Made by a program: the position numbers and the translations under genes. From positions 1 through 14,397 of the forward strand of contig JAISBS010000066.1 of the NCBI GenBank assembly GCA_031266075.1: DNA of 14,397 bases, in the 5' to 3' direction. The stretch is from Treponema sp. GTDB taxonomy: Bacteria; Spirochaetota; Spirochaetia; Treponematales; Breznakiellaceae. The notes under the pieces were generated by a model. That model saw only the letters and a list, made by a program, of their open reading frames with translations. It was not told where the DNA came from and searched no databases. This document shows positions 742 to 13,975 of the stretch, one piece after another (position 1 is the stretch's first letter; every line of letters begins with the position of its first letter).

Positions 742-787
742 TTATTAGATTTGTTTAAAAACTGAAGTTTTTGAACAAATCTAATAA
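742..787. repeat. Palindromic intergenic repeat copy a: TTATTAGAT-TTGTTTAAAAAC-TGAAG-TTTTTGAACAA-ATCTAATAA (21-nt arms)
   Basis: Inverted repeat read directly. Copies share the same core at 5563-5598, 11449-11484 and 11558-11593. It lies between convergent ORF 63-620 (+) and the GlcG-like gene (-), so it could act as a bidirectional terminator hairpin. Confidence 0.7.
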
Positions 788-2033: not shown

Positions 2034-3104
2034 CTACGCATTTTGCCGGGCGATTTCCTGGAACTGGTCCTGGAGGGCGATCACCGCATCGGTAACGACC
2101 GGATCAAATTGGGTTCCCCTGCCTTCGGAGATGATCCGCACCGCCTCATCGTAGGAGAAGGCTTCCTTGTATACCCTGGCGCAGACCAGAGCGTCGTACA
2201 CATCGGAAGGGGAAGCGATCCGGGCGGAAAGGGGAATCGCCGTTCCCCCAAGGCCCCTGGGATAGCCTTTTCCGTCAAACCGCTCGTGGTGGCACCAGGC
2301 AATATCCCGGCAGTGCTTCAGATAAATGGAATCCTCGTCCTTTACCGCCTTCATCATTTCTTCGATGATATTTTTCCCCACCGTGGTGTGGGTTTTCATA
2401 ATTTCAAATTCTTCCGGGTCGAGCCTGCCGGGTTTAAGGAGGATCTTGTCGGGGATGCCGATTTTTCCCACATCGTGGAGGGCCATGGATTTTACGATAA
2501 TGTCCGGCTCCTGGGCCCGGAGTTCCTCCGCGTATACCGAACCGGATTTTATCAGATAATCGATCAGGGCCCGGCAGAAAAACTGGGTCCGCTTGACATG
2601 ACTTCCGGATTCAAGGTTCCGGTATTCGATAATGTTCGCCAGAGCCTGGAGGGTATTGTCCAGTGTAGAAGTTACCTCCGCGGTTTTTTCGGCCACCATC
2701 TCTTCCAGGCTGTCGCTGTAATTTTTTAATTCAATCTGGTTTTTCACCCGGAGTTGTACGATCTGCGGGAAAAAGGGCTTGCTGATAAAATCCACCGCTC
2801 CGGCGGAAAGGGCTTCGCTTTCGGAATCCGAAGTAGTGATGAAAATAACCGGTATCCGCTTGAGATTGGCATCGGCCTTCAAAATTTCCAGCAACTGGTA
2901 GCCGTTCATTTCGGGCATAATAATATCCAGCAGAATGATCTTGGGGGGAATCTCGGCCTGGGACAAAACTTCAAGGGCCTCTTTTCCGTTTTCCGCGGTA
3001 ATGATGTTGTAGTTTTCCTTGAGAATTTCCTCAAGAATCAGACGGTTTGTTTCAACGTCGTCAACTACCAGCACGGTTGGATTTTCTTTAGGCATTTTGC
3101 GCAA
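2034..3104 (-). CDS. Response regulator with N-terminal REC domain and C-terminal HD-GYP domain (c-di-GMP phosphodiesterase class, RpfG-like)
   Basis: 356 aa. The REC signature is VLVVDDVETNRL...ILLDIIMPEMNG...KxP. The HD-GYP signatures are HDVGKIGIPD and HHERFDGKGYPRGL. The alternative start MPKEN (ATG at 3093-3095) sits only 2 nt after the Hpt stop codon. Confidence 0.9.
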   Translation of the reverse strand: MRKMPKENPTVLVVDDVETNRLILEEILKENYNIITAENGKEALEVLSQAEIPPKIILLDIIMPEMNGYQLLEILKADANLKRIPVIFITTSDSESEALSAGAVDFISKPFFPQIVQLRVKNQIELKNYSDSLEEMVAEKTAEVTSTLDNTLQALANIIEYRNLESGSHVKRTQFFCRALIDYLIKSGSVYAEELRAQEPDIIVKSMALHDVGKIGIPDKILLKPGRLDPEEFEIMKTHTTVGKNIIEEMMKAVKDEDSIYLKHCRDIAWCHHERFDGKGYPRGLGGTAIPLSARIASPSDVYDALVCARVYKEAFSYDEAVRIISEGRGTQFDPVVTDAVIALQDQFQEIARQNA

Positions 3105-3432
3105 TCACCTTGTCAATTTCTTTTATGGTTTCGTCAAACGTATGTTTCACCGTTTCGATCTGTTCAGAATTTACCGTACGGGCCTTGATGTGGACCTCCA
3201 GTTCGAGGATCTGCCTGAAAAATTCGATCAGGGATAAATTCGCCGCCACGCCTTTTATCGTATGGGCCGAGGTCTGGGCTTTTTCATAATCGCCCGCATG
3301 AAGGAAGCCGGTCAGGTCATCCAGGCTGGCGCTGGTCCTGAATTTGGCAAGCAGCGTATAGTACAGCGCCGCGTTATTCATTACCCGCGCAACGCCTTCT
3401 TCAATATTAATAAACACCGGCTCGTCAGCCAT
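3088..3432 (-). CDS. Stand-alone histidine phosphotransfer (Hpt) domain protein
   Basis: 114 aa with the AHTIKGVAANLSL motif (phospho-His in the HxxKG context). It lies immediately upstream of, and overlapping or abutting, the REC-HD-GYP gene on the same strand. GGGGAG lies 7 nt upstream of the ATG. Confidence 0.7.
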   Translation of the reverse strand: MADEPVFINIEEGVARVMNNAALYYTLLAKFRTSASLDDLTGFLHAGDYEKAQTSAHTIKGVAANLSLIEFFRQILELEVHIKARTVNSEQIETVKHTFDETIKEIDKVIAQNA

Positions 3433-3572: not shown

Positions 3573-4766
3573 CTAAAAGCGCAGCCGGGCTTTGACGGTG
3601 AGGATAAAGCGGCTTCCCCCGGAAGCATCCGGCGGGATGGGGCCCAGTTCGCCCCGGCTGCCGTTTCCGGAAAAGAGGTCCCGGTCCAGGGGGGCCTGGG
3701 CGGAGAGGTTCAGGGTAAAGCCCTGAAAGAGTTCGTGTTCCGCGCCGAGGAGCGGTACAAAGGAAATGTCGCTGAACGAGGAAAGACAGGCCAGGGTGAA
3801 GCGGGTGTAATCGCTGTATAGCCAGGTCAGGCCGGTGTAGAGAAAATGTTCGCCGGAGAATCCGGCCAGATTGCCGCTCCGTACCGATGTGGAGGAGGCG
3901 GCGCCGTTGTAGAGATATTCCATCTGGACATACCACTTGCCGTCCGAAAAGGAATAGTCAAAGCCGCTGTTAAAGGAAAGGCCCTGGATATCCGCGCCGT
4001 CTTCGGGGTTATGGGTGTAAAGCATATCCACGGTAAAACCCAGTTCAATATCCGCCTTGAGGGAGAAGCCGCAGCGGTGTATGCCCTGGAGGGAACCGGG
4101 CTTTGGCAATTCAAAGGCGTAGAGGGCCTGGATACTGGCCTTGTCCCAGTGCTGATCTCCGGAGAATCCCGCCAGGCCTCCGTCTCCTTCCAGGGCCAGC
4201 GGATCCCTGGGCGCGGAGCCGAAAAGCTGAAGTTTCAGGGAATCCAGCGGATAGGCCGTAAGGGTTCCGCCCAATACCGCCCGGGGCCGGGCGTCGGGGA
4301 TCAGGGGATTTTTGGGGTTGAGAAAATCCGAGGGTCCGAAAACCTGCCCGTAACCAAAGGCGATCCGCATAAGGCCGCCGTCAAGATCCAGGTAATCGCC
4401 CGTGAGCCTGAAGTAAAGCCGTTCCAGTTCCAGCCCTGCGGCGTAGTTTTCCCCGGCGCTAAAAGCGGAGGGCGCGGGCCCTGGAGACGCGGCCCCCGCT
4501 CCCAACACGGCTGCCGCGGGACCGCCCGCCGCGGCGGTCAAATTCAGGGCCCCGTAAAAAGAAACGCCGTCCCGGGGCTTCGCCTGCATTCGCAGATTGG
4601 CGTATTCTTCAAGGCCGTAAAAAAAATCCGGCATACTGCCCGCCCCAGCCCCCAGGGTAACTGTCGTGTCCAGAATCCCCAAAAACTCCAGCCCCCCGGC
4701 CCAAAGCGCCCTGCCCGCCGTCAGGACCGCGCACAAACCGGCCAACAAAAATCTTTTTCCGCCCAT
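3573..4766 (-). CDS. Predicted outer-membrane beta-barrel protein (signal peptide; C-terminal ...ARLRF beta-signal)
   Basis: 397 aa. The N-terminus MGGKRFLLAGLCAVLTAGRALWA reads as a signal peptide. The body is rich in Gly/aromatic strand-like segments. The last residue is Phe with an alternating hydrophobic pattern (LTVKARLRF), typical of a BAM-recognised terminal strand. It starts 5 nt after the LolA-like stop. Confidence 0.55.
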   Translation of the reverse strand: MGGKRFLLAGLCAVLTAGRALWAGGLEFLGILDTTVTLGAGAGSMPDFFYGLEEYANLRMQAKPRDGVSFYGALNLTAAAGGPAAAVLGAGAASPGPAPSAFSAGENYAAGLELERLYFRLTGDYLDLDGGLMRIAFGYGQVFGPSDFLNPKNPLIPDARPRAVLGGTLTAYPLDSLKLQLFGSAPRDPLALEGDGGLAGFSGDQHWDKASIQALYAFELPKPGSLQGIHRCGFSLKADIELGFTVDMLYTHNPEDGADIQGLSFNSGFDYSFSDGKWYVQMEYLYNGAASSTSVRSGNLAGFSGEHFLYTGLTWLYSDYTRFTLACLSSFSDISFVPLLGAEHELFQGFTLNLSAQAPLDRDLFSGNGSRGELGPIPPDASGGSRFILTVKARLRF

Positions 4767-4771
4767 GATAA

Positions 4772-5527
4772 CTACCGTTCCAGATTCCGCTGGCTGAATA
4801 CCGAATCGGGGATGGGGCGGTCCAGAATGACATTCCGCATTACCAGCGTGGTCTTGCTGTTTTTCCGCAGAAGGTCCCGGATCTCAATCTCCACCGGGAA
4901 GCGGCGGCCTCCGAAAACTTCCACCCTGACAAGATTGTACTCTTTGAGTTTCGCCCCCGAAAGAGCGAAAAGTTCATAGTGGAGGCAGTCCCCGGTTTCC
5001 TTGTCGATCCAGAGTTTTTGTTTCGGGTAACTTTCGGTCCGCTTTTTCGCGGTGAGGTCCAGGATCCAGCAGTCCCGGCTTGCGCCGTTCATGATCCAGT
5101 CCGCGGAACCGCCGATGGCCGGATCATAGCGGGCCGAGAGCGTTTCGTTTTCGATTGTGTCTTCGTAGGACATATCGGAACCCATCATGCTTTCTTTCAG
5201 CATATGTCCTGAGATCAGCATCACTTCCTCGGTATCAGGCGAATACACGTAGAGCCGCCCGCCTTTTTTCAGGTACTTGGTTCCCCGGTCTCCGGGATTA
5301 ATAAATTCAACAAAACTGTCGGAATTTCCCCTGCCCCAGAAGTTCATGGTTTTTACAAACCGCTTGTTCTGATACTCGATGATCATATCCCCTTCGTATT
5401 CGATGGTGGTATAGATCTCGTTATCATCCACCCGCCGCAGCAGTTCCGCCGCCGAGGGCGTCTGCCCATACACGAATGAGCCCGCCATCACCGTAAACAA
5501 AACCGTCCATACCAGTGCTTTCATCAT
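4772..5527 (-). CDS. Secreted LolA-like protein (outer-membrane lipoprotein-sorting/carrier-like; PF17131-type call is tentative)
   Basis: 251 aa with signal peptide MMKALVWTVLFTVMAGSFVYGQ and a soluble, acidic mature part. It is positioned between an FtsX/MacB-type permease and an OMP gene, where LolA-like genes typically sit. The family assignment is from recollection and is not verifiable without an HMM search. Confidence 0.5.
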   Translation of the reverse strand: MMKALVWTVLFTVMAGSFVYGQTPSAAELLRRVDDNEIYTTIEYEGDMIIEYQNKRFVKTMNFWGRGNSDSFVEFINPGDRGTKYLKKGGRLYVYSPDTEEVMLISGHMLKESMMGSDMSYEDTIENETLSARYDPAIGGSADWIMNGASRDCWILDLTAKKRTESYPKQKLWIDKETGDCLHYELFALSGAKLKEYNLVRVEVFGGRRFPVEIEIRDLLRKNSKTTLVMRNVILDRPIPDSVFSQRNLER

Positions 5528-5562
5528 AAACCTCCCGTGTTTTTTTAGTCCTTTAACTGGAC

Positions 5563-5598
5563 TTGTTCAAAAACTGAAGTTTTTAAACAACTCTATTA
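5563..5598. repeat. Palindromic intergenic repeat copy b: TTGTTCAAAAAC-TGAAG-TTTTTAAACAA-CTCTATTA
   Basis: Read directly. It lies in the 68-nt gap between permease 2 and the LolA-like gene, and its 3' end overlaps the permease-2 stop codon (TAA at 5596-5598). On the - strand RNA the arms pair perfectly, with one G:U. Confidence 0.7.
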
Positions 5599-6864
5599 TC
5601 TCCGCAGCGCTTCCACCGGCTCGACGAACGCGCTTTTGAGAGACGGAAACAAAGTGCAGATCGAAGTGATCAGCACGCCGAAAACAAAACCCTGAAGCAG
5701 GATCACCGGATCAAAGACAAGGGTTATGGTTCCCGCTATGGGGAATTCCTTCATGCCGCCGCCGGTGAAGATGTCCAGTTCCAGGGGGAAGAAAGAAAGA
5801 GCCAGGGTTACCATGCCCCCCGCCACGCAGCCTGCCAGAGAACCCAGGACGCTGAGGAACACCGCTTCAAAGAAAAAGACCCGGACGATCTCGGCCCGGC
5901 TCATTCCCAGGCTCCCCATCATGCCGATCTCCTTGATCCGCTCGTGGATGATCATCACCACGGTGTTGACAATAAGAAAGCTCGCCACAATAAGAAAGAC
6001 CAGGTAGACCACCGTAAAAATCATCATGCTCTGCCGCATCAGGATCACAAAATAATTATCCCGCCAGTCCCGGACTACGTTGTCTTTCCCCAGCAGGGTT
6101 TTGAATTGCGCGGTCAGGTTCCGGCTTTGGGAGGCGTCTTCGGCATAGATAAAAAGCTGCTGGGTTCCTTCTTCCAGCGCGAGGAGCCGCTGGAGCCGGG
6201 CAAAGTCAACGATGATTGCGTCTTCGTCATACTTGAGGTAATCGAACCGGAATATCCCGGTAATAACCGGGCTCCACATCTTGTCGGAGAACTGGGCCGA
6301 CACGGTTTTAAGGGGCAGGCGGTCGCCCACCCGGAGCCCGGCTTTTTCGGCCATCCTGACCCCGATGGCGCACTCGTTGGCCTCCGGTTCGGGGTAGCGG
6401 CCCGCCGCAAGACCTGAGTCCCGGCGGGTAAGGTTAAAGTTGTTCAGGGCCAGTTCCTCCCGGGCCTTGATGCCCCACAGAAACGCGTGTTTCACCGTGC
6501 TGTCCTGAAGGGTGGCGTAGGCGGTAATCCGGGGAAGAACAGCCTTTACCCCGCTGAAATTCAGCGCCCGGCGCTCCAGTTCCGCTACGGAAAGGCCCCC
6601 GGCAACGGGAAACCAGACGGGGTAATATTCTTTCTCCGCCTCGTAACGGGAGGAAACCACGCTCACATGGCCGGTGTCAAAAGTACAAACCACTTCTTCT
6701 ACGTTGTCCTTCATCCCCACCATCCAGGCCTGCATAAACACCGTAAAGAACACCGCGATAGCCGCCGCGCTGATGCAGAACAGCGTCCGCCGCCGGTTCC
6801 GCAAAATATTCCGGTACGCGATCTTGATGAGCGTCCCCGCCCCGCCAATTTTCATGCTGCTCAT
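5596..6864 (-). CDS. ABC transporter permease, FtsX/MacB/LolC-E type (4 TM plus periplasmic domain)
   Basis: 422 aa. N-terminal TM1 (RRTLFCISAAAIAVFFTVF), a periplasmic domain of about 200 aa, and a C-terminal 3-TM FtsX bundle (MMIFTVVYLVFLIVASFLIV ... ). A strong RBS AAGGAGG lies 5 nt upstream of the ATG at 6862-6864. Confidence 0.85.
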   Translation of the reverse strand: MSSMKIGGAGTLIKIAYRNILRNRRRTLFCISAAAIAVFFTVFMQAWMVGMKDNVEEVVCTFDTGHVSVVSSRYEAEKEYYPVWFPVAGGLSVAELERRALNFSGVKAVLPRITAYATLQDSTVKHAFLWGIKAREELALNNFNLTRRDSGLAAGRYPEPEANECAIGVRMAEKAGLRVGDRLPLKTVSAQFSDKMWSPVITGIFRFDYLKYDEDAIIVDFARLQRLLALEEGTQQLFIYAEDASQSRNLTAQFKTLLGKDNVVRDWRDNYFVILMRQSMMIFTVVYLVFLIVASFLIVNTVVMIIHERIKEIGMMGSLGMSRAEIVRVFFFEAVFLSVLGSLAGCVAGGMVTLALSFFPLELDIFTGGGMKEFPIAGTITLVFDPVILLQGFVFGVLITSICTLFPSLKSAFVEPVEALRR

Positions 6865-6874
6865 ATATACCTCC

Positions 6875-7042
6875 TTATTCGCCGTGGGGGTCTAATACCC
6901 TGCCCTTTAGGGCGGTCAGAATTGGTAACACCAACAAAAATGGTAGTAGACCCCCACAGTTAATAATTTCTTTACAGAACGAACCTCGTAAAATGATGCA
7001 ACGCCTACAAGATACCCCGTCCTTCAGGGCGGGGAGGTTCAT
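6875..7042 (-). CDS. Unannotated small ORF (57 aa), Cys-rich: MNLPALKDGVSCRRCIILRGSFCKEIINCGGLLPFLLVLPILTALKGRVLDPHGE
   Basis: Hand-translated from the - strand. Its ATG (7042-7040) overlaps the permease-1 TGA (7041-7039) in an ATGA arrangement. Its TAA (6877-6875) sits directly against the GGAGG RBS of permease 2. It has a CxxC-x7-C-x5-C pattern followed by a hydrophobic 16-aa stretch. It is below the 60-aa cutoff of the ORF track. Codon usage is AT-richer than the neighbouring genes. Confidence 0.3.
   Translation of the reverse strand: MNLPALKDGVSCRRCIILRGSFCKEIINCGGLLPFLLVLPILTALKGRVLDPHGE
7007..7034 (-). terminator. Terminator- or attenuator-like hairpin directly after the permease-1 stop: CCCCGCCC-UGAA-GGACGGGG followed by UAUCUUGU
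   Basis: On the - strand this is a 7/8-bp GC stem with a UGAA loop and then a moderately U-rich tail. It lies inside the operon and inside the candidate small ORF, so it is a partial terminator at most. Confidence 0.3.
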
Positions 7043-8805
7043 TCAAACCGCAGGCTTTCGGTGATCGGCATCTTGAGGGCGCGGCGGGTGGGGAAGAAGG
7101 CCATACAGGCCGCAAGCGTTGTGGCGGCGATCCCGGAGCCGATGATTACCGGAATGTTCCACGCGGAACGGAAGACGCCGGTAACCCGGTAGCCGATGTC
7201 TCCTCCGGCGGCATTGGTCATGGCACTAAAATCCAGGCCGTATTTAACCATGGGGATATTGATAAGGCAGCCTGCCGCAATGCCGATGAGGGAACCAAAG
7301 AAGCCCACCATGCCCGCTTCCATCATGTAGGTGCCGATCAACTGGCCGTCGGTCATGCCCATGGCCCGCATCATGCCGGTTTCCCGGGTTCGTTCCAGAA
7401 TGGCCAGCAGCATAGTGTTGGCGATCCCCATGAAGGACAGGATGAAGAGGATGATAACCATGATCTGATTGGAAACATTGTCCCCCTGAGAGGCCGCAAG
7501 GTAATCCCGCACATAGGCTTCCCAGGAAAAAATATCCAGTTCCTCCGGCAAGGCTGCCGGCAGGGAATATGCGGTTTTCGCCATGGTTGTTTCGGTGATG
7601 CCCGTTCCGGCCACAGCCGCTTTAATGGCCGCGGGACTCTCGGTCTTTCCGGGAACCTTTGCGTCATCGGCGTTTTTTATCCGTATGAGAAGTTCCGTCA
7701 CCCGGCCTTCCAGCATAAGTCCCGCTTCGTCCTGTAAAACATCCAGGGGAATCCAGGCGGTGTTGTTGTTGTTCCGGGGATTGGGGGAATTGACCACCCC
7801 GGCCACCACCGCGGAAACAAGCTGGTTCACGTGCCGTATGGCCCCGGCGTAATCTACCCGGACCATGGCGGTCAGCACCGCGGCCTGGAGCGCTTCGTCT
7901 TCGGAATAGAGATACCACGCCTGGGTTAGTTCATCAAACTCATAGGCGCGGTGGAAAAGCGCCCGCTCTTCCGCGTTTAAGGCCGGGGCCAGATCCACGT
8001 CAAATTTTTCCTTCCGTACCGATTCGGGGGCGGCCTTGATGTCGATGACCGTGGAGATTTGCACGTTCATCCGCCCCGTTTCCGCCAGCAGGTTCCAGTA
8101 GCGGTCCAGGTCCTGCGGGGGGATATTTTTTTTCAGGGTCTGGCGTTCCTCGCCGGGCCGGGAGGGAGCCGCCTCCGCCGGAGCGAAGAGGCCGCCGCTT
8201 TTTGCCGGCGCTTTTTCGTAGAGGCCCCGCACAAAGTCCCGTTCCTCCGGCGGCAGGCCGGGCAGAATGTCCCCGTCCAATTCATCCGCCGTGGGCCGCT
8301 GGGGAATCCCCACCTTGAGCTTGTCCGCCGTTACCGCCCCCAGCGCTATTTCGAAGGCGCCGCTTTGAATAAAGCGGCCCGACTCGATGTACCGGGGGTA
8401 ACGGAGGATCCGCGCCTCCGCCGCCGGGTCGCAGCCGATAAACTGCATGGGCGCGGAGGCCGCTTCCGTGTAGAGGGTCCCGGTAAACACAAAGCGCGGG
8501 GCGCTGTTATAGCCCGCTTCGTCCAGAGCCGCGGCGCACTGTTCCCAGCCGCCGAAATTTTCGTACATCGGAAGTTCGTCCTTTTTGGCGAAGTAGGTTT
8601 TTTTCTGGAGTTTCGCCGCGCCGATCTCGAAGTTGGCGATGTTCCGCAGGGAATCGATGTTTATCCCCGCAAGCCAGCCGTCCATAAAAACATAGAGCGC
8701 CACGCTGATACTTACCGCGGCGATGGTAAGAACCGTCTTTACCTTATGCCGCGCCAGGTTCCGCAGCGCCAGCCGTTTGAGTTCGATTACGCCTGCCATA
8801 GTCAT
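7039..8805 (-). CDS. ABC transporter permease, FtsX/MacB type with a greatly enlarged (~420 aa) periplasmic domain
   Basis: 588 aa. TM1 is at residues ~20-45 (VLTIAAVSISVALYVFM). The next TM segments begin only at ~residue 465 (IMVIILFILSFMGIANTMLLAIL). The C-terminal 3-TM FtsX bundle is followed by ...TESLRFE. Its start overlaps the ATPase stop as ATGA (8802-8805). Confidence 0.85.
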   Translation of the reverse strand: MTMAGVIELKRLALRNLARHKVKTVLTIAAVSISVALYVFMDGWLAGINIDSLRNIANFEIGAAKLQKKTYFAKKDELPMYENFGGWEQCAAALDEAGYNSAPRFVFTGTLYTEAASAPMQFIGCDPAAEARILRYPRYIESGRFIQSGAFEIALGAVTADKLKVGIPQRPTADELDGDILPGLPPEERDFVRGLYEKAPAKSGGLFAPAEAAPSRPGEERQTLKKNIPPQDLDRYWNLLAETGRMNVQISTVIDIKAAPESVRKEKFDVDLAPALNAEERALFHRAYEFDELTQAWYLYSEDEALQAAVLTAMVRVDYAGAIRHVNQLVSAVVAGVVNSPNPRNNNNTAWIPLDVLQDEAGLMLEGRVTELLIRIKNADDAKVPGKTESPAAIKAAVAGTGITETTMAKTAYSLPAALPEELDIFSWEAYVRDYLAASQGDNVSNQIMVIILFILSFMGIANTMLLAILERTRETGMMRAMGMTDGQLIGTYMMEAGMVGFFGSLIGIAAGCLINIPMVKYGLDFSAMTNAAGGDIGYRVTGVFRSAWNIPVIIGSGIAATTLAACMAFFPTRRALKMPITESLRFE

Positions 8806-9488
8806 TGTTTCACCTCGTCCGATTCGATTTGGCCGTCGCGGATGCGGATGATCCGGCGGGCAACGTCCATCACCATAAGGTCATGGGTGGAGAAGATGAA
8901 CGTGGTTCCTTCGCTTTGGTTGAGCCGCAGCATGAGTTCCAGAATTTCCCGGCCAATTTTGGAGTCCAGGTTCGCCGTGGGTTCATCGGCCAGAATCAGG
9001 GTGGGCCGTTTTATCAGGGCCCGCGCAATGGCCACCCGCTGCTGCTGGCCGCCGGACATTTCTTTGGGCCGCCGTTTTTCCATACCCTCAAGTCCCACCT
9101 GCGACAGAACCTGCCGGACCCGGTCGCGGGTTTCCCGCCTGTCCGTCCCCAGCAGAGTCAGCGGGAAGCCGATGTTTTCTTCTACTGACAAAACGGGAAT
9201 CAGGTTATATGCCTGAAAGATAAAGCCGATACTGTACCGCCGCAAAAGGGCCAGCTTTTTTTTGGAAAGATTGGCGATGTCGGTGCCGCCGACGCTTATG
9301 GAACCCCCGGTGAGGGTATCGAGGCAGCCCGCCAGATGAAGGAACGTTGACTTGCCGCTTCCCGAGGGCCCGGCAATGGCGGCAAAATCCCCGCCCCGGA
9401 ATTCCAGATTCACCCCCCGCAGAGCGTGAACCGTCTGCCCGTTTATCCCATAGTCCTTTACCAGATTTTCCGCCTTTACCACCGTCAT
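8802..9488 (-). CDS. ABC transporter ATP-binding protein, LolD/MacB-NBD type
   Basis: 228 aa. Walker A GPSGSGKST, signature LSGGQQQRVAIARAL, Walker B LILADEPTANLD, H-loop STHD. AGGAGG lies upstream of the ATG at 9486-9488. Confidence 0.95.
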   Translation of the reverse strand: MTVVKAENLVKDYGINGQTVHALRGVNLEFRGGDFAAIAGPSGSGKSTFLHLAGCLDTLTGGSISVGGTDIANLSKKKLALLRRYSIGFIFQAYNLIPVLSVEENIGFPLTLLGTDRRETRDRVRQVLSQVGLEGMEKRRPKEMSGGQQQRVAIARALIKRPTLILADEPTANLDSKIGREILELMLRLNQSEGTTFIFSTHDLMVMDVARRIIRIRDGQIESDEVKQ

Positions 9489-9508: not shown

Positions 9509-9566
9509 TTGTATTATTGAACTATTTATCTAGTACAATAGTAAATGAGCTAGTACAATATGTCAA
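9509..9566 (-). promoter_or_regulatory. Promoter TTGACA-N17-TACTAT of the ABC operon with embedded operator half-sites TAGTACAA (x2 direct) and TTGTATTA
   Basis: - strand: -35 TTGACA is plus 9561-9566 and -10 TACTAT is plus 9538-9543. The 16-mer ATCTAGTACAATAGTA (plus 9528-9543) is identical to the one at the GntR promoter (11265-11280). A second TAGTACAA at 9551-9558 lies in the spacer. Confidence 0.5.
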
Positions 9567-9598
9567 GTGGAAAAGGGGAAAATTTTGAATTCCGGGGT

Positions 9599-9644: not shown

Positions 9645-9675
9645 TTAATGAAAAACGGGGTTTCCGGCGGTTCCC

Positions 9676-10839
9676 CTAAGTCCCGCCTTTACCTTTTTTC
9701 TGCCGCAGTTCCGCCAGGGCTTGCAGGCCGAAGATGTCCTTCGCCTTGAGTTCCTCGGTGATGGAATTGGGTACCAGCATCATGGAGTTCCCCGCCTTGA
9801 GGCCCTCGTTCAAAATCGAAAGAATTTTGAGCTTCATGGCCGGTTCGTTTTTCGCGTAGATGGCTACCGCGGTTTCCAGCTTTTTGGCGATTTCGATCTC
9901 CGCGTCCGCCAGGAGGATCCGGCCTTTCTTTTCCCGTTCCGCCTGGGCGATCCGGGAGAGGGAATCCTGAAGGTCTTCGGGGATCTGAATGTCGGTGATT
10001 TCAATATGCTGGATGGTGATGCCCCATTCGGTGGTTTTCCGGTCCACTTCTTCCTGAATCTGCTTCTGGATGATTTCGCCATGCTCCAGAAAGGTGGACA
10101 GGTCGTGGCTGGACACGGAGTTCCGCAGGGCGGTTTTCGCGGAGAGGATCACCGCATCCTGGTAATTTTCCACTTCCAGTACCGCCTTCTCCGGATCCCA
10201 GACGAGCCAGAAGCAGAGGGCGTCCACGGTAACTGTTACTGAATCGCCGGTGAGGGTTTCCTGGGCCACAAAGTCCGTAACCCGGATGCGGAGATCCACG
10301 GTCTGCGCGACCCGGTCTATCAGGGGGATGAGGACAAAGATGCCGGGGCCCTTGACCCGGTGGAAGCGGCCAAAGCGGAGGACGATGGCCCGCTCCCATT
10401 CATCGGCTTTCTGCACCAGGGGGGCGATGAGGGCTGTGAGCGCGGCGAAGAGCAGGGCCGGGCCAAAATCGAAATCCCTTTGGGGGAACCAGATGAACCA
10501 GGCGGCCCCCGCCGTGCAGATCAGGGCGATGCTGATCTTAACCGCCGCGGCCCAGCGGGGGAACAGCGTCATGCAGAGGAGAGTCAGGGCGGGAAGGCCC
10601 AGGAGCAGCCCCAGTTCAGTTGCAGAAGGGAAGCTCCCGCCAAGGCTGAGGCCCGCCAGCACAAAGAGGACGGCGGCGGCGAGGATGCCCAGCCCCGCGG
10701 CGCTCAGGGTAAAGTCCCGTTTTTTTTCCGGCGGGGAAGGGCGGTTTTTGATGTGGGGCTTGTCCGAAAGGAAGCCTGTTTCGCGGCGCTTCAACTCGGG
10801 GCCGCCGGTTTGGTCCGGTTCGCCTTTTTTCCTAAACAT
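9676..10839 (-). CDS. SPFH/band-7 (stomatin/prohibitin-like) membrane protein with an N-terminal ~4-TM extension
   Basis: 387 aa. Residues ~45-145 contain four hydrophobic segments. The PHB core follows: EWERAIVLRFGRFHRVKGPGIFVLIPLIDRV...VDLRIRVTDFVAQETLTGDSVTVTVDALCFWLV, then a coiled-coil-like C-terminal tail. RBS AAGGAGAA is present. The ATG (10837-10839) overlaps the last codons and stop of the GntR gene by 8 nt. Confidence 0.85.
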   Translation of the reverse strand: MFRKKGEPDQTGGPELKRRETGFLSDKPHIKNRPSPPEKKRDFTLSAAGLGILAAAVLFVLAGLSLGGSFPSATELGLLLGLPALTLLCMTLFPRWAAAVKISIALICTAGAAWFIWFPQRDFDFGPALLFAALTALIAPLVQKADEWERAIVLRFGRFHRVKGPGIFVLIPLIDRVAQTVDLRIRVTDFVAQETLTGDSVTVTVDALCFWLVWDPEKAVLEVENYQDAVILSAKTALRNSVSSHDLSTFLEHGEIIQKQIQEEVDRKTTEWGITIQHIEITDIQIPEDLQDSLSRIAQAEREKKGRILLADAEIEIAKKLETAVAIYAKNEPAMKLKILSILNEGLKAGNSMMLVPNSITEELKAKDIFGLQALAELRQKKGKGGT

Positions 10840-11266
10840 CTTGCGATTCTCCTTTTTCGTAACGGTACCCGTGGATCAGTTCCGGAAGCTCCGCCTGATC
10901 CACTCCTAAATCCTTCATATCCTGTATAAAGCGGCCCAGCACTTCCCGAATTTTCCGGTTCAGCCCTTCCTCGGCGGAAGCCGCTTCTCCCAAAAGGGGC
11001 GCTTTGTCCGACACATAGGTGCCGCTCCCCACCTGGGTGGTCAGGATACCCCGGATTTCCAGTTCCCCATAGGCTTTGGCGATGGTATTGGAGTTGATCT
11101 TCAACTCCACCGCCAGGGAACGGATAGTGGGCAGCCGGTCGCCGGGCCGCATCCGCTCCGAAAGGATGGCATATTCAATCTGCTGAATGATCTGTCGGTA
11201 AATCGGCGCCCCGTTGGACGGGTTCAGGGTAAAACTGATGGCCGGTTCCGCATTTGTACTATTCAT
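10832..11266 (-). CDS. GntR-family transcriptional regulator, short C-terminal domain (YtrA-like subfamily)
   Basis: 144 aa. The winged HTH reads PIYRQIIQQIEYAILSERMRPGDRLPTIRSLAVELKINSNTIAKAYGELEIRGILTTQVGSGTYV. Only ~60 residues follow, with no FadR/HutC/MocR-size effector domain, which is the hallmark of YtrA-type regulators that control adjacent ABC exporter operons. Confidence 0.85.
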   Translation of the reverse strand: MNSTNAEPAISFTLNPSNGAPIYRQIIQQIEYAILSERMRPGDRLPTIRSLAVELKINSNTIAKAYGELEIRGILTTQVGSGTYVSDKAPLLGEAASAEEGLNRKIREVLGRFIQDMKDLGVDQAELPELIHGYRYEKGESQDV

Positions 11267-11303
11267 CTAGTACAATAGTAGATACGCTCGTACCATGTGT
11301 CAA
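11254..11303 (-). promoter_or_regulatory. GntR promoter TTGACA-N17-TACTAT (near-leaderless) plus inverted repeat TTGTACTA-N6-TAGTACAA centred on the GntR start codon
   Basis: - strand: -35 TTGACA is plus 11298-11303 and -10 TACTAT is plus 11275-11280, only 8 nt from the ATG (11264-11266). The palindrome arms are at 11254-11261 and 11268-11275. The 16-mer 11265-11280 is identical to 9528-9543. Confidence 0.5.
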
Positions 11304-11374
11304 GACGGTTTTGACCGGATCTCCAGGAGGACCGGCTGTAACCACCCGCCCTTCCGTTTTTTTCAATAATGGAC

Positions 11375-11406
11375 TTGTTCAATAACCCAGTTGGTTATTT
11401 CACAAG
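11375..11406. repeat. Degenerate palindrome TTGTTCAATAACC-cagtt-GGTTATTTCACAAG sharing the TTGTTCAA seed with the repeat family
   Basis: Read directly; the arms match 11/13. It lies in the divergent intergenic region between the GntR gene and the RND efflux operon. Confidence 0.35.
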
Positions 11407-11448
11407 TCTCGCAAAATGCTCCGCATTTTTGCTGTTTTTAAGAGGAAG

Positions 11449-11484
11449 TTGTTCAAAAACTGAAGTTTTTAAACAACTCTAATA
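11449..11484. repeat. Palindromic intergenic repeat copy c: TTGTTCAAAAAC-TGAAG-TTTTTAAACAA-CTCTAATA
   Basis: Read directly. Confidence 0.7.
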
Positions 11485-11557
11485 AGGAAATCAACAACTG
11501 CCTGAAACCGGGGTTTCCAGAAGTTCTCCTTTTTTTGTATGCTTGTTCCGGGGTTGC

Positions 11558-11593
11558 TGTTCCAAAAACTGAAGTTTTTAAACAACTCTAATC
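11558..11593. repeat. Palindromic intergenic repeat copy d (left arm degenerate: CTGTTCCAAAAAC): TGAAG-TTTTTAAACAA-CTCTAATC
   Basis: Read directly. It ends 19 nt before the GTG start of the TolC-like gene and is adjacent to the GGAGGG RBS at 11602-11607. Confidence 0.65.
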
Positions 11594-11612
11594 ATTTTTT
11601 CGGAGGGATTGG

Positions 11613-12965
11613 GTGGGGCGTGTTTTTGCCGGATGTTTTTTTCTTGCGGTAAGCCTGTCCCTGGCCTGGCCGGAGAATGACCCGCCGGGGGTTCTGTCCG
11701 GCGGCCCGCTGGTTCTTACACTGGACGAAGCGGTGCGGCGGGCGCTGGAGGAGAATCTGGATCTGAAAAAGCGGCTCATCGACCTTTCCGCCGCCGGATA
11801 CGCCGCGAAAAACCTTTGGGCGGAACTGTTCCCCTCCATCACCGCCGGAGCGGGGGCGAGTTACGGAACCGGGCTTTTTTCGGGGAACGGGTTTGAACTG
11901 GACAAAAGCGGCCTTGGCTATGATCTTTCGGCAGGGTTGAGCCTGAGCCTGAACGCGGGACTTCCCCAGACCATGAAGATCATCAAACTGGCGTACCAGT
12001 CCCGGCTGCTGGAATATGAGGATGCCCGGCGGCAGCTTGAAACGGTGATTGCCAAAAATTTTTACACCCTGCTGACGGACCGGGAGAACCTTGCCCATCT
12101 GGAAAAAACCCTTGAACTGGCGGAACGTCAGCTTGAACGGGACCGGATCGCCTTTAACAACGGCCTCAAGGGGGAGCTGGCCCTGCTTCAGAGCCGGCTG
12201 GGCGCGGAAACGGCGAAGTACCGGCTCAGCAATGCCCGGACCGCCTATACCGCCGCGCTGGGGGATTTTTTGGCCCTTTTGGGGATTCCCCAGGACAGGC
12301 CGGCGGTTCTGGATGGGGAGATCGACATCTACCCGGTGGACGCGGAGCCGGAGGCCTTGATCCGGGAATATCTTCCCAAACGGCCTGACATTCTGGGCTG
12401 GGGGCAGGCCATCGAGAGCCTTGAGTATACGGCGCGGCAAAACGCGCTGGAGGCCCGGGCCCCTTCGCTGACTTTGTCCACCCGGTGGAGCAGCCAGTTT
12501 GAACCCTTCGCCGACCGGGTGAACGGTTCCGTATCGGTTTCCATCCCCATTGATTCCTGGGTTCCCGGAACCCGAAGGGACCGGGCCCTGAAAACCGCGG
12601 CGGCGAATGTCGAAAAAGCCCGGCTGGATCTGAAAAACGCCGAAAACGAAGCGGCCTCCCGGATCCGGTCTTTGGCCGCGGGCCTGAAAAATTCCTGGGC
12701 CGGCATCGAGATTGCCCGGCTCAGTGTGGAGATTGCGGAACGAACCTATGAACTGCACGAAGAGGGTTTCCGGCTCGGTACGGTGGAGTCGCTGGCGCTG
12801 GAGGACACCCGGAACAGTCTGGCGGAAAAACGGCAGCAGCTTTTGCAGAGCGAATTGGCCTATCAAACTATGACGCTGGATTTGGCCGCCGCCCTCAATA
12901 TAGACTGGAAAATATTGGGGGATATAACAAACGCCCCGGAAGCCTCCGCGGGGAGTGAACGGTGA
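11613..12965 (+). CDS. Outer-membrane efflux protein, TolC/OEP family
   Basis: 450 aa with a GTG start, signal peptide MGRVFAGCFFLAVSLSLAWP, and an N-terminal LTLDEAVRRALEENLDLK motif. It has a two-repeat coiled-coil/beta architecture typical of OEP. The opposite-strand ORF (11592-12983) is Pro/Gly/Arg-rich and looks spurious. Confidence 0.85.
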   Translation: MGRVFAGCFFLAVSLSLAWPENDPPGVLSGGPLVLTLDEAVRRALEENLDLKKRLIDLSAAGYAAKNLWAELFPSITAGAGASYGTGLFSGNGFELDKSGLGYDLSAGLSLSLNAGLPQTMKIIKLAYQSRLLEYEDARRQLETVIAKNFYTLLTDRENLAHLEKTLELAERQLERDRIAFNNGLKGELALLQSRLGAETAKYRLSNARTAYTAALGDFLALLGIPQDRPAVLDGEIDIYPVDAEPEALIREYLPKRPDILGWGQAIESLEYTARQNALEARAPSLTLSTRWSSQFEPFADRVNGSVSVSIPIDSWVPGTRRDRALKTAAANVEKARLDLKNAENEAASRIRSLAAGLKNSWAGIEIARLSVEIAERTYELHEEGFRLGTVESLALEDTRNSLAEKRQQLLQSELAYQTMTLDLAAALNIDWKILGDITNAPEASAGSER

Positions 12966-13975
12966 AACATACAAAGACCTCAAAGAGAGTAACCATCGTT
13001 ATCAGCGGTTTGACGGGTATTTTTGTTTTGCTCATTGGCTGGACCGTAATTCAACGGCGCCCGCCCGCGACGCCGTCCGCCGCAGGGCCCGGCGCGGCGG
13101 CTCCAGCTTCGGCGGGCGGCGGCCCCGGCGCGACGGCTCCAACTCCGGCGGGCGGTGAGGCTGGGCGTGGCGGCGGGGCGGCCCGGAACGCCACCGCAGT
13201 GCGGGTAACGCCGGTAACGCTGGATACCATCGAGAATTCGGTAGTCATTAACGGAGACGTGCTGGCCCGGAACCAGGTTTCCATTTACCCCACCGTGGCG
13301 GGAAAACTGGCGGAAGCCCGGCGGGGAATCGGCGACCGGGTGAACCGGGGGGATGTGGTGGCCATGGTAGATCCTTCCCGGCCCGGAGAGTTTTATTCCC
13401 TGAGCCCCGTGGTTTCCACTATTTCCGGCACCGTACTGCAGGCCCCCTTCAGCGCCGGCGATACCCTGTCCACCGGATCGGCGGTCTATGTGGTGGGGGA
13501 CCTTTCGGAACTGGTCGTGGAGACCTTTGTGCCCGAGCGGTTCACGACCGCGGTGCGGCAGGGGCTGGCCGCCCAGGTGAGTTTTGAAGCCCTGCCGGGG
13601 GAAATTTTCCCCGCCGCGGTGGATGAGGTAAGCCCCGTGCTGGATCCCGCCAGCCGCACCATGAAGATCCGGCTCCGCTTTACCGGGTGGGCCGACCCCC
13701 GAATCCGGGCCGGAATGTTCGCCACGGTGAGCCTGGTAACCAACACCCGCTCCAGCGTACCGGTGATCCCCCGGGGCGCGGTGATCAACACCTACGGTTC
13801 CTGGATTGTCTTTACCGTTGACGATGAACAAACCGCCCGGCGGCGTTCCGTTACCCTGGGCCTTGAAAACGAAACTTTCATCGAAGTAAGCGGCGGCCTT
13901 GAAGAGGGGGAACTGGTGGTTACCGCGGGGCAGAATTTTTTAAGCGACCGGGATCCGGTCCGCATTATCGAATAG
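12962..13975 (+). CDS. Efflux RND periplasmic adaptor subunit (membrane fusion protein, HlyD/AcrA family)
   Basis: 337 aa with a GTG start overlapping the TolC stop (GTGA). There is an N-terminal TM anchor, a Pro/Ala/Gly-rich linker, then lipoyl/beta-barrel/MP-domain-like sequence (VTPVTLDTIENSVVINGDVLARNQVSIYPTVAGKLAE...). Confidence 0.85.
   Translation: MKHTKTSKRVTIVISGLTGIFVLLIGWTVIQRRPPATPSAAGPGAAAPASAGGGPGATAPTPAGGEAGRGGGAARNATAVRVTPVTLDTIENSVVINGDVLARNQVSIYPTVAGKLAEARRGIGDRVNRGDVVAMVDPSRPGEFYSLSPVVSTISGTVLQAPFSAGDTLSTGSAVYVVGDLSELVVETFVPERFTTAVRQGLAAQVSFEALPGEIFPAAVDEVSPVLDPASRTMKIRLRFTGWADPRIRAGMFATVSLVTNTRSSVPVIPRGAVINTYGSWIVFTVDDEQTARRRSVTLGLENETFIEVSGGLEEGELVVTAGQNFLSDRDPVRIIE
13088..13156 (+). 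repeat. Imperfect 36-bp tandem duplication encoding GPGAAAPASAGG / GPGATAPTPAGG in the adaptor-protein linker
   Basis: Two 33-nt units at 13088-13120 and 13124-13156 with 29/33 identity and an in-frame period of 36 nt. Confidence 0.7.

Follow-up and report, generated by a model that had tools for sequence, protein, structure and literature searches.

Intergenic repeats of 100–160 bp that fold into stable hairpins are known in different groups of bacteria and include Correia/NEMIS in Neisseria, RUP in Streptococcus pneumoniae and ERIC/IRU in enterobacteria. These repeats occur in operons and promoter regions and can alter the fate of transcripts as a by-product. Correia and RUP elements, which are IS630-like, duplicate a TA target and fold end to end.

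The Spirochaetes, including Leptospira, Sediminispirochaeta and Treponema, are rich in MITEs, with an average of 145 per genome according to a census published in 2024 (PMC11602168). Target duplications of the 5'-ANT-3' type match bacterial IS5 transposons, and the related TIRs usually begin with GG (PMC4482050).

The window considered here is a stretch of 14,397 nucleotides from a contig of Treponema sp. (JAISBS010000066.1), and its closest relatives are termite-gut Treponema. It contains four copies (a–d) of a palindrome that, with high probability, is the right-terminal hairpin of a 108–110-bp MITE, which resides in intergenic DNA of termite-gut Treponema/Spirochaetaceae and is a candidate for IS5-type mobilisation.

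Palindromes of the window and their gene context

A core of 16 nt, AAAAACTGAAGTTTTT, is matched exactly at positions 757, 5569, 11455 and 11564, and the repeat search of the window assigned these four copies to a single family (D1). The chance expectation for the core in the window, obtained with dinucleotide shuffles, is 0.01 against the 4 matches observed, and 8 core matches, the number with both strands counted, were reached in 0 of 200 shuffles. Direct reading confirmed the four palindromes at the coordinates proposed by the sequence-only reading, an earlier model-made note on this DNA, with the core exact in each. The single orientation of the TGAA centre, on the + strand at all four sites, was also seen correctly, as were the 21-nt arms of copy a, which are self-complementary and correspond to repeat I6 of the search.

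Some details had to be amended. The tail of copy b, given as CTCTAATA, is actually CTCTATTA. A perfect hairpin with a G:U on the − strand had been ascribed to copy d, the left arm of which is degenerate (GCTGTTCCAAAAAC) and the + strand hairpin of which is no better than shuffles (z = −0.35). The statement that every copy consists of one GTTC half and one GTTT half is valid for copies a–c, but it is not a general trait and is peculiar to this contig. The argument about the strand of the hairpin, built on a G:U pair, cannot be generalised, since the mismatch is private to this contig and the pair in question (the C/T position) is Watson–Crick in 42 of 44 aligned full copies of other genomes, namely C:G in 21 and T:A in 21.

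Genes were called by a codon-usage model trained on Pfam-supported genes, all of which were reproduced. The + strand carries an unknown gene (63–620) and the genes of an OEP (11613–12965) and a HlyD-type adaptor (12962–13975). On the − strand, there are genes of an HbpS-like protein (906–1322), a response regulator with an HD domain (2034–3104), Hpt (3088–3432), an unknown protein (3573–4766), a LolA-like protein (4772–5527), FtsX/MacB permeases 1 (5596–6864) and 2 (7039–8805), an ABC ATPase (8802–9488), SPFH (9676–10839) and GntR (10832–11266). tmRNA was located at 1596–1969 by cmscan and was the sole Rfam match in the whole window at E ≤ 1, with no family for the repeats. Exact-protein records for the LolA-like, GntR and OEP proteins of the window were sought and none were found. 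A plasmid origin of the window was rejected, the matches being limited to short ABC-ATPase stretches.

According to this gene call, copies a–d are intergenic, as had been supposed, and the contexts ascribed to them match the gene map: copy a is situated between convergent genes, copy b between cistrons, and copies c and d upstream of OEP, where they share the divergent GntR/OEP spacer. A scan for promoter and terminator consensus placed nothing in any of the four copies. The actual promoter/operator-like repeat of the window is D3, a different sequence.

Anatomy of the element

The palindrome of 36 bp had been taken as the repeated unit. In fact, it is one terminal hairpin (HP3) of an element of ~110 bp, and the conserved repeat reaches ~76 nt leftward of copy c, beyond the 36-bp unit. 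The full-length MITE occupies positions 11371–11480 of the + strand (110 nt, from GGACTTGTTC to AACAACTCT), and copy c is its last 32 nt plus flank. The target-site duplication is AAT on the left (11368–11370) and AAT on the right (11481–11483); the sequence AAT/GGAC...CTCT/AAT was read directly, and both triplets agree with the statistics of the family. In the CM search, model R1 matched element c over positions 1–109 of 109 (116.3 bits, E = 2e-28).

Element c is composed of three hairpins, all given for the + strand. In HP1 (11372–11408), the left TIR, GACTTGTTCAATAACC, is paired with its inward inverted copy, GGTTATTTCACAAGTC. HP2 (11411–11439) is GCAAAATGC-TCC-GCATTTTTGC followed by TGTTTTT, is terminator-like and has one bulged T in this copy. 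HP3 (11447–11478) is AGTTGTTCAAAAAC-TGAA-GTTTTTAAACAACT, the 3' arm of which plus CTCT makes up the right TIR. As RNA, the element folds with −34.6 (+) and −40.0 (−) kcal/mol (z = −4.7 and −6.3, respectively). Copy c is an intact insertion in the promoter region of the OEP/HlyD efflux operon.

The 126 listed core matches were aligned with the core as an anchor, and most of them have a common left flank and a terminus at CTCT. The canonical element is 108–110 nt long, leaves no possibility for an ORF and is formed by HP1, GGACTTGTTCAATAACC-CGGT-TGGTTATTGAACAAGTC (the inward arm is also written GGTTATTGAACAAGTC), HP2, GCAAAATGC-TCC-GCATTTTGC then TGTTTTTAAGCGG, and HP3, which is the palindrome described above, then CTCT. 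Alignment A1, in which element c is the first row, comprises 44 copies and has a consensus of 109 nt with a mean column identity of 86%. The left end of this consensus, GGACTTGTTCAATAACC, agrees at 13 of 17 positions with the reverse-complemented right end, AGAGTTGTTyAAAAACT. The TIRs are imperfect, with agreement at 10 of 12 core positions including the common TTGTTyAA, and their consensus, nGAnTTGTTyAA, is paired in both HP1 and HP3 with an inward inverted copy of itself.

In the structure of A1, 94.8% of the cells pair. Changes on both sides were found in 13 pairs against 5.3 ± 1.4 in shuffled data and 2–5 with the partners slid, although shuffle statistics overstate the significance, because copies within one genome are not phylogenetically independent. 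Helix 1 (HP1) has 16 pairs, 9 double-sided changes and 95% of its cells paired; HP2 corresponds to helices 2 and 3 and HP3 to helix 4. The 4-nt loop, read relative to the element, is TGAA in 79 copies and TTCA in 24 among the matches listed, and both orientations occur among otherwise identical copies within one MAG. Divergent variants found with the CM keep the three hairpins with quite different stems. For example, HP3 of locus L113, GAAAAUCAAAAGU-UGAA-ACUUUUGAUUUUC, has a divergent stem and retains the TGAA loop.

The sequence of HP2 is unrelated to the ends of the element, and at least 8 different stems of 9–17 bp were found at this place. Folding better than that of shuffles (z < −2) was observed for 41 of 50 distinct middle segments, and a T-rich tail follows at least 60% of the MFE folds of these segments. 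Judging by these features, HP2 resembles an intrinsic terminator and was perhaps inherited from a parent IS. HP3 has 2–3 G:C pairs and lacks a trailing T-run. Being G:C-poor and giving no consensus match, it was rejected as an intrinsic terminator, and the elements have neither a sense nor a 3'-end preference.

Copy b (5559–5594, +) is a short form of 36 nt, GGACTTGTTCAA + AAACTGAAGTTTTTAAACAACTCT, with both termini kept. In sequence, it corresponds exactly to the 12 nt at the start of element c followed by the 24 nt at its end, and the same short form is present in loci L004 and L066. The starts of the HP1 and HP3 arms are 8-nt direct repeats, TTGTTCAA, and copy b, an internal-deletion derivative, is the product to be expected of a deletion between them. 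It is located between the FtsX stop and the LolA-like start (both genes on the − strand) and is flanked by ACT (5556–5558) and ATT (5595–5597). A flanking triplet shares nucleotides with the TAA stop (5596–5598) of FtsX, the gene upstream, and the FtsX reading frame is intact because the target of copy b overlapped the native stop codon (AGAT-AAT).

Copy a (742–787, without an assigned strand) is a solo HP3 with 21-nt arms, TTATTAGATTTGTTTAAAAAC-TGAA-GTTTTTGAACAAATCTAATAA. It folds with −23.9 kcal/mol (z = −9.5), gave an HP3-only match in the CM search and is nothing more than the form with a flipped loop, oriented the other way. Its palindrome extends across the flanking triplets (ATT...AAT), which are inverted, not direct, and the same was observed in loci L041 and L069. 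Copy d (11556–11589, +), 23 nt upstream of the OEP start, is a decayed solo right end, GCTGTTCCAAAAAC-TGAA-GTTTTTAAACAACTCT then AAT, with partial and weak CM scores of 21.2 and 15 bits. In copies a and d, only a right end is left, as a secondary remnant, and our interpretation of solo HP3s of the copy a type is that fold-back or template switching has made a right end symmetrical. The idea that solo palindromes are independent mini-MITEs was rejected: the inverted, not direct, flanks point to secondary palindromisations.

Distribution, target duplications and empty sites

The comparison set consisted of fragmented MAGs and metagenome contigs. A scan for AAAAACTGAAGTTTTTNAAC with one genome per species revealed at least 111 loci, so the further copies anticipated from a genome-wide pattern search do exist. 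Among the matches listed, nearly all are from Treponema/Spirochaetaceae MAGs of higher-termite guts, and many of these MAGs are multi-copy. The CM search gave more than 100 matches of at least 60 bits. The repeat is not species-specific, as had been thought: at least 23 species-level MAGs of Treponema/Spirochaetaceae contain full copies, and so do termite-gut metagenomes. In loci picked by protein homology, not by the repeat, there are about 6 full copies in 479 kb. Many copies are situated at a distance of ~89 nt from a contig end (k = 119 assemblies), a position attributable to the fact that a repeat longer than the k-mer is expected to break the assembly.

No match to the full element was found in phage and plasmid records. 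Two matches to a 21-nt core in viral contigs were considered due to chance, the element being absent there by CM search. Core-only matches without arms or flanks in Robertmurraya, Paracoccaceae, Salinimicrobium, Flavobacteriaceae and Alcaligenaceae, as well as in two Bacteroidetes MAGs and one Clostridia MAG, were also ascribed to chance. Two Clostridia loci (L049 and L108) have the palindrome with short arms, and the rest of the element is missing.

Among the matches listed, 0 of 114 copies lie wholly inside genes and 107 are intergenic, at a coding fraction of 0.77. Of the full copies, 14 are in divergent, 22 in tandem and 5 in convergent spacers, which is close to the background, and the left-neighbour gene is co-directional in 23 cases vs opposite in 34 (p = 0.18). 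Since both the orientation and the spacer distribution are unbiased, nothing suggests that the copies are positioned to act as terminators.

These data bear on the view that the hairpins have a function in mRNAs, whether in termination, stabilisation or processing, and that the host keeps the repeat for this role. The HP2 hairpin, variable and followed by a T-run in most subfamilies, is terminator-like, all hairpins show covariation, and copy b, lying between two cistrons, folds better on the − strand, which is the mRNA sense (−13.7 vs −9.3 kcal/mol). Moreover, the element is more similar across species (86% identity) than the flanking coding genes are (~74% nucleotide identity). However, a terminator-sense bias is lacking, gene 3' ends are not preferred and divergent promoter spacers are occupied as the background predicts. 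HP3, which is rich in A/T, does not match a simple terminator consensus, there is no promoter consensus in the elements and no Rfam family, the G:U asymmetry is private to the window contig, and the target duplication and empty sites described below show that the copies came by transposition. It is quite unlikely that such a function explains the repeat, and the absence of orientation bias speaks against the proposal of an RNA hairpin punctuating transcripts as its primary identity. An exapted role in transcripts, especially of HP2, is possible.

Among the matches listed, identical 3-nt flanks (before GGAC and after CTCT) were found in 51 of 62 copies, while permutation of the flanks gave a mean of 27.0 (sd 2.8) and a maximum of 37 in 5000. 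Flanks matching as the reverse complement occur in 2 of 62. The duplicated triplets are, as a rule, of the A-N-T type (ATT in 36 copies, AAT in 10, AGT in 3, ACT in 1 and ATC in 1). The first flank position is A in 59 of 62 left and 61 of 62 right flanks, and the third is T in 56 and 60, respectively, a composition that corresponds to the ANT target of the IS5 family. The triplet is not a subfamily feature, because it differs between near-identical copies within one MAG.

Two empty sites were found, both by paralogous comparison. In Iy174_bin21, the filled locus L063 reads GAGTAC CAT[element]AAT AACCAAG vs GATTAC CAT AACCAAG in L015, and L026 is a further empty counterpart. In Cc175_bin63, the filled locus L001 reads CACGC ATT[element]ATT ATGTGGATACC vs CACGA ATT ATTCGGATACC in L073, with L101 as a further empty counterpart. 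In both comparisons, the insertion equals the element plus 3 nt. The duplication probably comprises 3 bp but may be one of 2 bp with a fixed terminal A, since only the middle base of the triplet is informative; the pair L063/L015 (CAT...AAT) fits a 2-bp duplication slightly better.

Comparison of orthologous regions, which had been suggested as a check, showed that relatives do not have copies b and c at these sites; the relatives compared have at most 80% amino acid identity, and the empty sites described above are paralogous ones elsewhere. Upstream of OEP in loci L192–L194 (72–80% amino acid identity), element c is absent and the flanking motifs are kept, namely TGTAACCA...TTCCGTTTTTTTCAAT[A/T]AT and TTTTTTTGTATG[A/C]TTGT...GGAGG. 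L193 has a copy of 119.6 bits elsewhere, though none upstream of OEP. The FtsX stop abuts the LolA-like RBS with no insert in ~20 of 80 relatives, e.g. AGAAGATAGGAGGTTTTTTATG, other FtsX–LolA junctions carry unrelated palindromic repeats, and HP3 was found at none of these junctions in the 80 relatives. The junction of copy c compared with L193 (CAATTATGGTATAAGGA) might be read as having no duplication, and this reading was rejected, because neither the family statistics nor the two empty sites are compatible with an insertion other than the element plus 3 nt.

Thus, the element inserts at A-N-T with a 3-bp duplication, avoids coding sequence and has no preferred orientation to its neighbours. 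It is short and non-coding, with TIRs and a direct target duplication, and its dispersed intergenic copies show insertion polymorphism, which is what characterises a MITE. The sequence-only reading had also named a MITE-like element among its options, and this option is borne out by the TIRs, the 3-bp target duplication, the empty sites, the high copy number and the intergenic location.

Its other option was a REP-like repeat. REP/REPIN sequences are short palindromes located outside genes; a domesticated Y1 (RAYT) transposase recognises them in the form of single-stranded hairpins and spreads them. The short A/T-rich palindromes considered here are likewise strictly extragenic, numerous, present in both orientations and sometimes paired, with hairpins maintained by compensatory change and a conserved loop sequence. 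Nevertheless, a 3-bp duplication and empty sites were found here, whereas Y1 transposition produces no duplication, the GTAG-type head is missing from the A1 consensus, and what moves is an element of 110 bp with three hairpins and inverted ends rather than one palindrome of 20–40 nt. The occurrence of the loop in both orientations argues against its strand-specific recognition. A REP/REPIN-type origin is very improbable, and the label "REP-like" does not suit a repeat without a GTAG head and with a target duplication.

A palindromic operator for a dimeric transcription factor controlling a regulon, with the 12-4-12 structure TTGTTyAAAAAC-N4-GTTTTTrAACAA, was also considered. The dyad is perfect, the divergent promoter region of GntR/OEP contains two copies, and TTGTTGTTTA-like motifs are found upstream of several LolA-like orthologues. 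On the other hand, copies are also situated between convergent genes and downstream of genes, next to functionally unrelated neighbours (ROK kinase, CarA, MnmE, MCP, ABC transporter), and the palindrome is nearly always inside the larger element with a target duplication. It is missing from orthologous promoters of close relatives, and D3, the operator-like repeat of the window itself, is a different sequence. A shared transcription-factor site had been proposed earlier; as the primary identity of the repeat, it disagrees with the near-background mixture of divergent, tandem and convergent spacers and with the lack of orientation bias, and is extremely improbable.

Proposed mobilisation and relation to known systems

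The MITE would be mobilised in trans by an IS5-type DDE transposase recognising GG-initial ends. For the IS5-type derivation, we rely only on the target duplication and the initial bases. The left end, GGACTTGTTCAATAAC, also seems similar to the IS903 end, GGCTTTGTTGAATAAATCG. The TIR pairs 0.3–4 kb apart in loci L001–L111 yielded no autonomous element having these ends; the TIR-bounded segments encode ROK kinase, acyltransferase, CarA, MnmE and MCP. An IS3-type rve fragment in L085 was rejected as the partner transposase, since it merely abuts a MITE.

The hairpins may be kept because both arms represent a transposase-binding sequence, or by intra-palindrome template switching. The latter process, if it takes place during replication, would be the simplest account of both loop flipping and arm homogenisation, and its basis is the generally known quasi-palindrome mutagenesis. 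Should the insertions influence transcripts, for instance by placing a hairpin in the FtsX/LolA-like mRNA or by displacing a promoter upstream of OEP, this influence would be a by-product.

The covariation of HP1 and HP2 and the TGAA loop conserved in divergent variants exceed the needs of a passive MITE. Perhaps the three hairpins, including HP2, and the TGAA loop are selected as a structured nucleic acid, although we consider this unlikely. In such a case, they may serve as ssDNA hairpins in an unusual transposition that still yields a 3-bp duplication, or as a transcribed RNA module (terminator or insulator) used by the host or the element. If true, this would explain the covariation across subfamilies and the conservation above that of neighbouring genes.

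Identification of the repeat as a MITE corrects an attractive but wrong reading of it as a regulatory palindrome or species-specific REP and adds a MITE family with a wide distribution in the uncultured Treponema, which predominate in the guts of higher termites. The element accounts for many assembly breaks at its sites and could serve as a marker for strain or lineage tracking. Furthermore, it points to insertions by which expression may have been rewired, namely those in the efflux-operon promoter and at the ABC/LolA-like cistron junction. In our opinion, the family is a reasonable model for the evolution of palindromic ends in bacterial MITEs.

No description of this MITE family was found in the literature. 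The termite-gut Treponema family is apparently undescribed and represents an ordinary kind of genomic parasite; current understanding is not challenged by this finding. Its self-palindromic termini, terminator-like centre, flipping loop and 86% cross-species identity are mildly unusual.

Comparing the family with known systems, the following may be concluded. REP/BIME/REPIN sequences are, like this family, extragenic multi-copy palindromes with solo and clustered forms, but they have a GTAG head, a Y1 transposase and no target duplication, whereas in this family 3 bp are duplicated, empty sites occur and the ends are inverted. Correia/NEMIS, RUP and ERIC/IRU belong to other phyla and have no sequence similarity to the element; in Correia and RUP, TA is duplicated and the fold is end to end, in contrast to the ANT duplication and three local hairpins found here. 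With the IS5 family and its relatives in eukaryotes (PIF/Harbinger, Pangu and Tourist-type MITEs), the family shares the 3-bp A-N-T duplication and GG-initial TIRs (PMC4482050); no transposase gene with matching ends was recovered for it. Other bacterial MITEs are likewise small and non-coding, with TIRs, a short target duplication, ~90% intergenic location and many copies per genome (PMC11602168). In a typical MITE, the two ends pair together, whereas in this family each terminus is a local palindrome, with a terminator-like hairpin between them.

Repeats around the GntR/OEP spacer

A direct repeat of 51 nt (TTGnACTATTnATCTAGTACAATAGTAnAT...GTCAAG) is present at positions 9517-9567 and 11254-11304 of the window, with 84% identity between its copies; the ABC-transporter operon has one of them in its upstream region, and the GntR gene has the other. 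Both copies contain a match to a TTGACA-17-TACTAT promoter on the minus strand (9566-9538 and 11303-11275) and, within each, dyads like TAGTACAATAGTA. Judging by these sequence features, the repeat is probably a promoter/operator common to both sites and controlled by the GntR-family regulator.

Between copies c and d of the element, the intergenic MITE consisting of hairpins HP1, HP2 and HP3, a small second hairpin, AACTGCCTGAAACC-GG-GGTTTCCAGAAGTT, was found at 11497-11530. It has an HP1-like form and was scored by the covariance model as a partial element on the reverse strand, using HP3 of copy c (33.9 bits); a related stretch of 26 nt (81% identity) is located at 9652-9677. This hairpin may be the leftover of a further element copy in the opposite orientation.

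At a relative's locus with an OEP orthologue (L192), only the half-site GGAGTTTGTTCAAAAAACAAAATCATCTTCCCGGAGGG occurs upstream of this gene, at about 1330-1360, where the window has copy d. Either the left arm predates the palindrome, or the right half was lost in the relative.

Spurious reading frames at the OEP and tmRNA genes

The entire OEP gene (450 aa) is spanned by an antisense "shadow" ORF of 463 aa (11592-12983, minus strand), and a gene call based on length was misled here because the shadow ORF is the longer one. Codon-usage scoring and Pfam support the plus-strand OEP gene. The short ORFs 1443-1718 and 1649-1894 are spurious, because they overlap a complete tmRNA gene at 1596-1969 on the plus strand. 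This gene matches Rfam RF00023 over model positions 1-374 of 374 with 140.3 bits (E = 1.5e-55) and is situated between the HbpS-like gene and the response-regulator gene.

The element and other repeats in further genomes

Comparison of the roughly 130 nt that precede the LolA-like gene in L112-L191, orthologous to window 5528-5595, revealed that the FtsX/LolA-like junction in various termite-gut treponemes is a hotspot of other, unrelated palindromic and tandem repeats. These include the hairpins CACGGAGGCACAGAG...CTCTGTGCCTCCGTG and GGGGATCAGGG...CCCTGATCCCC and tandem repeats of AGGAATTAGGAAT, and in several relatives the motif TTAGTTGTTTATA stands immediately 5' of the RBS.

In L085 (2840-3722), an IS3-family transposase fragment with HTH_21 and partial rve domains is either directly adjoined or cut short at its 3' end by a full-length element (125 bits). 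This is probably a MITE inserted into a decaying IS, not the autonomous partner.

Two short contigs are binned to non-spirochaete MAGs obtained from the same termite samples as the spirochaete carriers: L013 (labelled Proteiniphilum) has a canonical full-length element, and L103 (labelled Planctomycetaceae) a solo HP3 with the tail CTCTATTA. Mis-binning is the simplest explanation; horizontal transfer is possible.

As read from the flanks of filled and empty sites, the MITE target sequences at L001/L073/L101 and L015/L026/L063 belong to other dispersed repeat families within the respective MAGs, for example, ...GATGGAATACT..GGGnCCnCGAAnGAACGCTCnTGTTCACG... and ...CTAAAyTTGACCCACAAGTCAAGACCTGATTAC.... 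Therefore, several nested repeat families exist in these genomes.
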